64,000 bases of DNA from a virus. Its lineage: Duplodnaviria; Heunggongvirae; Uroviricota; Caudoviricetes. The position numbers were made by a program, and so were the translations under genes. This document shows positions 19,613 to 20,386 of the stretch, one piece after another. The DNA lies in IMG/VR virus record IMGVR_UViG_2909262264_000005. The stretch is one strand, 5' to 3'. A model generated the notes under the pieces. The model was not told where the DNA came from. It saw only the letters and a program-made list of their open reading frames with translations, and made no database searches. Each line of letters starts with the position of its first letter. The first letter of the stretch is position 1.

Positions 19613-20386
19613 ATGGATATTACTGAGTTTCCTTCTGGAGTAATTGAACACCTTGGCTGGTATGTATACCGATTGATTGATCCGAGGGACGGAAGCACCT
19701 TCTATGTAGGGAAAGGCAAAGGTAACCGCGTATTTGCCCATATGCGCGGTGAAGTGGCAGCGACTGATGATGACGAGTTACTGAGCAACAAGCTAAAGCA
19801 AATTAGAGAAATAAGGTTAGCAGGACTTGAAGTTATCCATGTCATCCATCGACACGGAATGACTGATGAAAAGACGGCGTACGAAGTTGAAGCAGCACTT
19901 ATTGATGCCTACCCTAGGTTAACGAATATCATGAATGGTGCTGGCAGCAATGAATTCGGCGCCGCGCATGTCAAAGAGTTGATAGCAACATATCAGCCCG
20001 AAACCATAACATTTCATCATAAAGCATTAATGATATCCGTTAACAGAAGTGCAAAGGATTCAGAGCTTTATGATGCGGTTCGATTTAGCTGGCGCATTAA
20101 TGTCTCTCGCGCCAGCCAAGCAGAAATCATTCTTGCTACTGTAAGAGGGATCGTTCGAGGGGTTTTCATTGCTGATAAATGGCTCAAATCAACACGTGAA
20201 AATTTCCCTTCGTTGAAATACTGGGACGAGGATCCTGACTTTGAGGCAACACAAAGTTCGCGCTATGGTTTTGAAGGTCGAGAAGCCCCACCTGAAATAG
20301 CAAATCTTTATCTTGGAAAAAAAATACCAGATGAATTAAGAAAAAAAGGAGCTATGTCCCCGGTCCGTTACTCACCTAATTTTTGA
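19613..20386 (+). CDS. GIY-YIG nuclease-domain protein with uncharacterised C-terminal domain
   Basis: N-terminus [29 protein letters not shown] (GIY-YIG signature with conserved Arg/His); 257 aa; AT-rich 400-bp upstream region. Confidence 0.6.

Follow-up and report, generated by a model that had tools for sequence, protein, structure and literature searches.

PD-T4-3 is a defence gene whose original isolate is ECOR68 (Vassallo et al. 2022, as cited by Liu et al., PMC12923530). It has been renamed CMoRE by Liu et al. (Nat Commun 2026, PMC12923530), to whom the Protein Data Bank (PDB) entries 9U75/9U8D and 9U7U/9U7Z are due. Here we report on a gene at positions 19613-20386 of a stretch of 64,000 nucleotides from a virus of the Caudoviricetes (IMG/VR record IMGVR_UViG_2909262264_000005; the whole stretch is called the window below), which a preliminary description, made from the sequence without database searches, had presented as an orphan GIY-YIG nuclease gene that inspection of the sequence could not classify. 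We consider the window gene, with high confidence, to be an intact copy of PD-T4-3/CMoRE, a GIY-YIG restriction endonuclease of type IV (modification-dependent), whose function against T-even phages we infer from its homologues. Its identity as PD-T4-3/CMoRE is settled because the encoded protein is 97% identical to a crystallised enzyme.

The properties of CMoRE recounted in this paragraph are those published by Liu et al. (PMC12923530). With the gene of E. coli O157:H7 expressed from its native promoter, T2, T4 and T6 plate about 10^5-fold less well. Carriers of this enzyme grow normally at a multiplicity of infection (MOI) above 1 and the read depth of the host DNA is unchanged, so that the defence is direct and non-abortive; the ECOR68 original is cited in the same article as also giving direct defence. 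The purified enzyme requires Mg2+ or Mn2+, and it binds and cuts DNA containing 5-hydroxymethylcytosine (5hmC) or glucosyl-5hmC, while DNA with cytosine or 5-methylcytosine (5mC) is spared; correspondingly, T4(hmC) is restricted and T4(C) escapes. Two modified cytosines flank the cut (CN11/N9G), which produces 2-nt 3' overhangs; T4 DNA is cleaved throughout the genome, depending on its modification, and the host genome stays intact. CMoRE is a tetramer (a dimer of dimers), and the V92S/L96S mutant loses both oligomerisation and defence. The N-terminal nuclease has an extra tyrosine compared with the usual motif ('GIYxY-YIG', with Y17, Y19 and Y31), and a 15-residue acidic loop lies over the active site: when its four acidic residues are changed to alanine ('4A'), ordinary DNA is cut and the protein becomes toxic. 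In 9U7Z/9U8D the C-terminal domain has 5hm-dCTP (the 5-hydroxymethylated deoxycytidine triphosphate) bound, with the Y127 main chain taking part in a hydrogen bond, and the authors, who assayed catalytic, oligomerisation and loop mutants, report neither sequence nor structural relatives of this domain.

Other studies extend these data. A Capnocytophaga homologue, PD-T4-3Capno, 48% identical to PD-T4-3, acts both in vitro and in vivo as a nuclease that depends on modification (PMC12366544). In NILS69, a native host, loss of PD-T4-3 sensitised the strain to Tevenvirinae, and the effects of restriction-modification (R-M) and PD-T4-3 were simply additive (bioRxiv 10.1101/2024.12.20.629700). The expression of PD-T4-3 in another strain is pH-responsive. 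A preprint on an END nuclease was also considered and concerns a protein unrelated to that of the window. The gene, mechanism, structure and distribution of PD-T4-3/CMoRE are already known, and because mechanism, structure and distribution have been published, the window gene raises no new question.

The gene of the window and the parts of its product discussed below are located as follows.

19613-20386, plus strand: coding sequence of PD-T4-3/CMoRE, 257 amino acids plus stop (open reading frame; PADLOC, PDB and RefSeq matches)
19613-19942, plus strand: GIY-YIG nuclease domain (Pfam PF22945, residue check and alignment)
19766-19777, plus strand: acidic codons D52-D53-D54-E55 of the autoinhibitory 'safety-catch' loop (the window reads AATDDDELL)
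19985-20383, plus strand: C-terminal modification-sensing domain, about residues 125-257 with an approximate boundary, including Y127 (PDB and literature)

The open reading frame (ORF) starts with ATG and keeps the coordinates of the preliminary description. The PADLOC profile for PD-T4-3 (PDLC04031) names the protein at once (E=7.4e-139, 459.6 bits, residues 1-256 against model positions 1-255 of 256), so the view that it could not be classified by its sequence does not hold. A search of PDB sequences with the window protein returned two proteins only, each aligned over residues 1-257 and ungapped: the CMoRE of E. coli O157:H7 (9U75/9U8D, E=6.6e-170, 249 of 257 residues identical, or 96.9%) and that of avian pathogenic E. 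coli (APEC) O1 (9U7U/9U7Z, E=2e-149, 84.8% identity). From the common RefSeq allele, WP_000355482.1, the window protein differs solely by G102R. The protein also matches over its full length PHROG 5356, a family without known function, while a search of NCBIfam gave no match. A single-sequence AlphaFold2 model reached a mean predicted local distance difference test score of 45.8, too poor for use.

Concerning the domains, the GIY-YIG signature described at the N-terminus was found by Pfam as LEM-3_GIY-YIG (PF22945, E=1.1e-14, residues 28-110), and the rest of the protein (about 130-150 residues), which had been said to carry no recognisable motif, indeed matches no Pfam family even at E<=10. 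The same holds when the C-terminal segment is queried alone for Pfam families at E<=10, and with the C-terminal 133 residues as sole query the PDB matches are CMoRE chains only (9U75, E=7.9e-85). The uniqueness of this domain was examined here at the level of sequence (Pfam and PDB). The 'GIYxY-YIG' motif reads G15-W-Y17-V-Y19 ... F30-Y31-V-G33 in the window protein, which also has R39, E93 and N105. An alignment of the window protein with homologues of 31-100% identity comprised four further copies from E. coli and four remote ones from phages (31-45%); the positions without variation include Y17, V18, Y19, F30, Y31, G33, K34, G35, R39, H43, E93, L103, T104 and N105, all kept in the window. 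The text of Liu et al. (PMC12923530) gives no residue numbers for the catalytic Arg, Glu and Asn, and the invariance, together with general knowledge of GIY-YIG nucleases, suggests that these are probably R39, E93 and N105. R80, V92, L96 and Y127 are also present, V92 and L96 belonging to the oligomerisation interface of CMoRE. The acidic run of the loop is DDDE in the window as in APEC O1, and DDDD in O157:H7. Every testable defining feature of PD-T4-3/CMoRE (profile, identity, residues and single-gene block) was thus found in the window protein.

The eight substitutions that separate the window protein from that of O157:H7 (window residue first: T51A, E55D, R102G, Q169K, I172V, N197H, S200T and L201M) are conservative or of surface type. 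Codon 102 (19916-19918) is AGG (Arg) in the window and GGG (Gly) in WP_000355482.1 and in both crystallised proteins, and it is the sole mismatch with strain 2014C-3655 (comparison locus L001) across 1211 nt. Because this position varies among the homologues (G, N, N, D or E), G102R is probably neutral.

The gene is framed by conserved non-coding elements, which are listed here with a tRNA relic at the left edge.

19412-19612, plus strand: conserved AT-rich leader of about 200 bp with a guanine-plus-cytosine (GC) fraction of 0.353 (DNA alignment with three other contexts, matching from about 19412)
20406-20455, no strand assigned: terminator-like hairpin (20406-20444) and U-run between the stop codons of CMoRE and tfa (folding)
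19415-19433, minus strand: 19-nt relic of the anticodon arm of tRNA-Ser(CGA), serU, reading GGACCGGTCTCGAAAACCG on the minus strand (alignment with K-12 serU and with comparison loci L002 and L003)

The non-coding DNA upstream of CMoRE measures 364 bp if the longest methylase ORF is taken as its limit and 406 bp if the RefSeq methylase start is, and its GC fraction is 0.349-0.355 versus 0.497 in the whole window, which bears out the AT-rich region of about 400 bp noted earlier. Rfam returned only noise from it. The promoter presumably lies in the leader (19412-19612). A simple consensus scan for promoters and terminators on the plus strand around CMoRE called neither element, and a lenient scan of the leader gave weak sigma-70 candidates only, such as TTGTGA-17-TAATAT at 19549-19577 (8/12). 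In the 69-bp gap between CMoRE and tfa, the hairpin at 20406-20444 has a folding free energy of -27.3 kcal/mol (z=-4.5, none of 200 shuffles being as good), and UUUUUCUUUUUU follows it on the plus strand. On the minus strand, the side of tfa, the hairpin folds equally well and the U-tract after it is weaker. The claim of a terminator shared by CMoRE and the convergent tfa gene is therefore plausible but only partly supported.

DNA alignment of four contexts delimits a conserved cassette of about 1 kb, from about 19412 to 20444, made of the 200-bp leader, the ORF and the hairpin. CMoRE is the only ORF in this common block, which makes it a single-gene system; the gene can accordingly be called an orphan in this respect, but no longer as an unassigned nuclease, and its earlier portrayal as a moron beyond tfa agrees with such a self-contained unit conserved across contexts. 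At the spot equivalent to the serU relic, L002 (5953-6022, minus strand) and L003 keep about 66 nt of the 3' part of serU plus 9 nt of the K-12 chromosomal flank downstream. Because this relic stands at the left edge of the cassette and is longer in L002 and L003, the alignment suggests that the cassette once adjoined the serU attachment (att) site and came from the end of a serU-integrated element. As a weaker lead, this edge may record hopping of the cassette between the att-proximal ends of prophages. An Rfam match to 'Plastid-psbl-rps4' in L002 was rejected, being the antisense of the serU relic.

The surroundings of the cassette in the window are formed by the following elements.

16269-16295, plus strand: last 27 nt of ssrA (transfer-messenger RNA, tmRNA), an att relic (BLAST of the L001 ssrA, weak Rfam tmRNA match, homology breakpoints)
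16524-17738, plus strand: EcoRII restriction endonuclease (Pfam EcoRII-N and EcoRII-C; PDB 1NA6, E=5.7e-243, residues 1-403)
17773-19206, minus strand: cognate C5-cytosine methyltransferase, 477 amino acids from the RefSeq start (Pfam DNA_methylase, E=4.7e-78, and DNA_meth_N; PADLOC MTase_II; RefSeq in L001)
20456-21040, minus strand: tfa, tail-fibre assembly gene of prophage B, convergent with CMoRE (Pfam Caudo_TAP, E=1.5e-45; RefSeq)

Two tandem prophages occupy ssrA-type att sites in the window, as follows from the 3' end of ssrA being found between the integrase of the first and the EcoRII gene of the second, and the ssrA relic marks the junction of prophages A and B. It comes directly after the integrase of prophage A (14937-16136), homology to other genomes breaks there, and within the window there is no second copy of the 27-nt core. 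ARAGORN reported no tRNA or tmRNA in the window, L002 or L003 because the ssrA and serU relics are too short; they were shown by BLAST and alignment instead. From the junction the order is EcoRII endonuclease, C5-methylase, CMoRE, tfa, tail fibre, lom and J, and strain 2014C-3655 has the same gene order adjoining an intact ssrA. The location at the tail-fibre end of prophage B, which is the second one and lambdoid, was correctly described, and so was the neighbouring R-M pair. The latter, whose methylase is convergent with the endonuclease (its longest ORF reaches 19248), is essentially EcoRII itself, carried as prophage cargo. The cargo block (16296-20455), which corresponds in position to the lambda b region, has a GC fraction of 0.43 versus 0.54 in the structural genes of the prophage.

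Some observations concern the neighbouring tail-fibre genes alone. Rfam reported IS009 (RF02111) at 20499-20697 on the minus strand with 229 bits (gathering score 117), wholly within the 3' coding part of tfa and on the same strand. The tail-fibre gene (21040-24444, minus strand) has a long repetitive N-terminal region rich in Ala, Ser and Thr, with units of the type '...SAA..K.SETNA...'. Around 23000-24000 this region combines a GC fraction of 0.55-0.62 with a strong AT skew, giving long spurious ORFs on the opposite strand.

The distribution of the gene was evaluated in 5426 complete E. coli genomes. CMoRE with its flanks occurs in 866 of them (about 16%), always beside prophage tail-fibre genes, and in 806 of these the match covers at least 80% of the query (the gene beside tfa), whereas the whole module of R-M, CMoRE and tfa is present in only about 240. 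Because the EcoRII methylase is absent from most CMoRE contexts (806 versus 240 genomes), the R-M pair seems to be a neighbour of CMoRE and not its partner. Neighbours differ by context (EcoRII R-M, BRO/ImmA or pinE/AraC): in L004, BRO, helix-turn-helix (HTH) and ImmA genes stand in place of the R-M pair at the same ssrA prophage end, while in L002 and L003 CMoRE adjoins pinE and tail-fibre remnants. The protein encoded in L003, a pinE/tail-fibre prophage remnant, is exactly the O157:H7 sequence that was crystallised. No more than a few kb from the cassette there is also Avs2 in L002 (10540-13028), and an ABC-three-component system with an integrase in L003 (394-3668). These surroundings are small defence clusters in prophage remnants.

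Outside these genomes, full-length homologues with 37-45% identity were observed in lytic jumbo phages (the Serratia Moabite/2050HW group, Pseudomonas OBP and Klebsiella N1M2), with genes at L005 3001-3765, L006 2992-3753 and L007 2998-3744 annotated as 'homing nuclease' or 'endonuclease'. These homologues, whose counterparts of the autoinhibitory loop (KDASN, PHSTD and PRKSD) are not acidic, might act against co-infecting phages with modified DNA. The E. coli phage PhiR41_1, which is 108 kb long, carries ParA and may be a phage-plasmid, encodes a 33%-identical homologue (L008 3956-4723) that is also present in CMS-2020a.

The mechanism has been shown for the homologues that are 97% and 85% identical to the window protein, and we extend it to the window copy on the strength of this similarity. 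CMoRE would be expressed from the conserved leader and would form a tetramer, as a dimer of dimers, in which the C-terminal domain of each subunit would bind one 5-hydroxymethyl- or glucosyl-hydroxymethyl-cytosine. One dimer would read two modified cytosines about 21 bp apart, and the Mg2+/Mn2+-dependent GIY-YIG domains would cut between them (CN11/N9G, 2-nt 3' overhangs). The acidic loop (D52-E55) over the active site would spare DNA that is unmodified or contains 5mC, and with it the host DNA that carries the methylation of the neighbouring M.EcoRII or a Dcm-type enzyme. Incoming genomes of T-even type would be destroyed directly and non-abortively, protecting the lysogen and the prophage, and CMoRE would complement EcoRII, which would cut the unmodified CCWGG DNA, a restriction that T-even phages evade.

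Several points weigh against a working PD-T4-3/CMoRE in this lysogen. All activity data come from homologues, not from the exact window allele; the APEC O1 homologue, expressed from its native promoter, gave weak defence (PMC12923530); neither a convincing sigma-70 promoter nor an obvious Shine-Dalgarno sequence lies upstream of CMoRE, so that expression in the lysogen is an assumption; and R102 replaces the Gly of both crystallised proteins and of WP_000355482.1 three residues before the invariant N105. The gene could accordingly be PD-T4-3/CMoRE by descent but inactive, through G102R near the catalytic Asn, or silent, its leader being untranscribed. The promoter candidates that reach 8/12 at best fit this explanation, as does the behaviour of phage NIC06_P2, which escaped PD-T4-3 at its native level in NILS69 and was restricted by plasmid-borne PD-T4-3 in K-12 (bioRxiv 10.1101/2024.12.20.629700). 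However, the ORF is intact, at least one other genome (H38) has the same DNA allele within 4.7 kb of 100% identity, full-length homologues tolerate G, N, D and E at position 102, where an Arg in a surface turn is unlikely to harm, and the leader is about 95-99% identical to the leaders of homologues that defend from native promoters. We therefore hold an inactive or silent gene to be very unlikely, and the window copy of PD-T4-3/CMoRE is very probably functional. An active nuclease might instead kill the infected cell, as an abortive-infection or toxin-type enzyme; many single-gene prophage nucleases work by abortive infection, and the loop-less '4A' mutant is toxic (PMC12923530). This hardly deserves any weight, given that growth at MOI>1 is normal in cultures with the O157:H7 enzyme and their host read depth is unchanged (PMC12923530), that the ECOR68 original is cited there as behaving alike, and that the acidic loop is intact in the window protein.

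Among the functions listed in the preliminary description (defence or anti-defence nuclease, homing endonuclease, repair enzyme), defence is the one retained, while homing, repair and anti-defence are set aside. A free-standing homing endonuclease of the I-TevI/Seg kind, spreading by cutting a specific target in genomes without the gene, would agree with a weak match to PHROG 314 'homing endonuclease' (E=0.0016), with the label 'putative homing nuclease' of full-length jumbo-phage homologues, and with the behaviour of the CMoRE gene as a mobile cassette. It is nevertheless highly improbable: those labels are bare annotations, Pfam scans of the window protein found none of the I-TevI-type modules (NUMOD, zinc finger or HTH), crystal structures show 5hmC bound by the C-terminal domain, and T4 DNA is cut genome-wide according to its modification, not at a long target site, leaving the host genome intact (PMC12923530). 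Moreover, the gene has a leader and a putative terminator of its own and forms part of intergenic prophage cargo, not being in or beside a target gene. The chances of a DNA-repair or structure-specific nuclease (UvrC-, SLX1- or LEM-3/ANKLE1-like), serving the host or the prophage genome, are negligible, since the nuclease fold alone is held in common and Pfam finds in the 257 residues no UvrC, UvrB-binding, RNase H-like or helix-hairpin-helix modules. UvrC-like housekeeping homology in a conserved context outside prophages, which had been named as the observation that would speak against the preliminary description, was not seen, nor was sensitivity to UV or crosslinks on loss of the gene; the gene is accessory, present in 16% of genomes and always as prophage cargo, and for its homologues a defence phenotype and dependence on modification have been shown.

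A separate question is whether EcoRII and CMoRE were brought together by selection. As a two-layer module, EcoRII would cut unmodified CCWGG, 5mC would come from the methylase, and CMoRE would attack 5hmC and glucosyl-5hmC and ignore 5mC, with G102R or the distinct leader possibly tuning the activity or specificity of CMoRE. We regard such co-selection, rather than chance proximity, as unlikely.

As for the meaning of the identification, the gene should be labelled PD-T4-3/CMoRE (type IV restriction endonuclease) in annotations, and not 'LEM-3-like GIY-YIG domain-containing protein' or 'orphan nuclease'. It predicts resistance of the lysogen to phages of T-even type whose cytosine is hydroxymethylated or glucosylated, and this bears on the prediction of host range in phage therapy. 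The locus is also a further example of lambdoid prophages that stack complementary defences between tfa and att.

Compared with the described systems, the CMoRE proteins of O157:H7 and APEC O1 agree with the window protein in length, architecture, ungapped alignment, all named functional residues and their nature as single-gene, prophage-associated cargo. The eight substitutions given above set it apart from the O157:H7 protein, affecting among others the acidic run, DDDE and not DDDD, and R102, which is private to the window allele; the setting also differs, an ssrA lambdoid prophage beside EcoRII R-M in the window and a pinE/tail-fibre prophage remnant for the O157:H7-type copy (L003). PD-T4-3Capno belongs to the same family, is modification-dependent and needs the GIY-YIG active site, but it is much more distant and is also reported to cut Mu DNA, which contains carbamoylmethyl-adenine (PMC12366544). 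The N-terminal GIY-YIG domain of UvrC and that of LEM-3 (PF22945) share with CMoRE the catalytic fold and the active-site residues Tyr, Arg, Glu and Asn, whereas CMoRE has the extra Tyr (GIYxY), the 15-residue acidic insertion, no repair-partner domains and another biological role. The biological logic is also that of the type IV enzymes PvuRts1I/AbaSI, GmrSD/BrxU and McrBC, which likewise join a sensor to a nuclease and attack only DNA with hypermodified cytosine, against T-even phages. The folds of GmrSD (DUF262/DUF1524 domains) and of the GTP-dependent McrBC are unrelated to that of CMoRE, and so is that of PvuRts1I, a PD-(D/E)XK nuclease with an SRA-like sensor, while CMoRE joins a GIY-YIG nuclease to a sensor without detectable sequence relatives. 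What PvuRts1I and CMoRE have in common is a cut made at a fixed distance between a pair of modified cytosines, with 2-nt 3' overhangs as the product.
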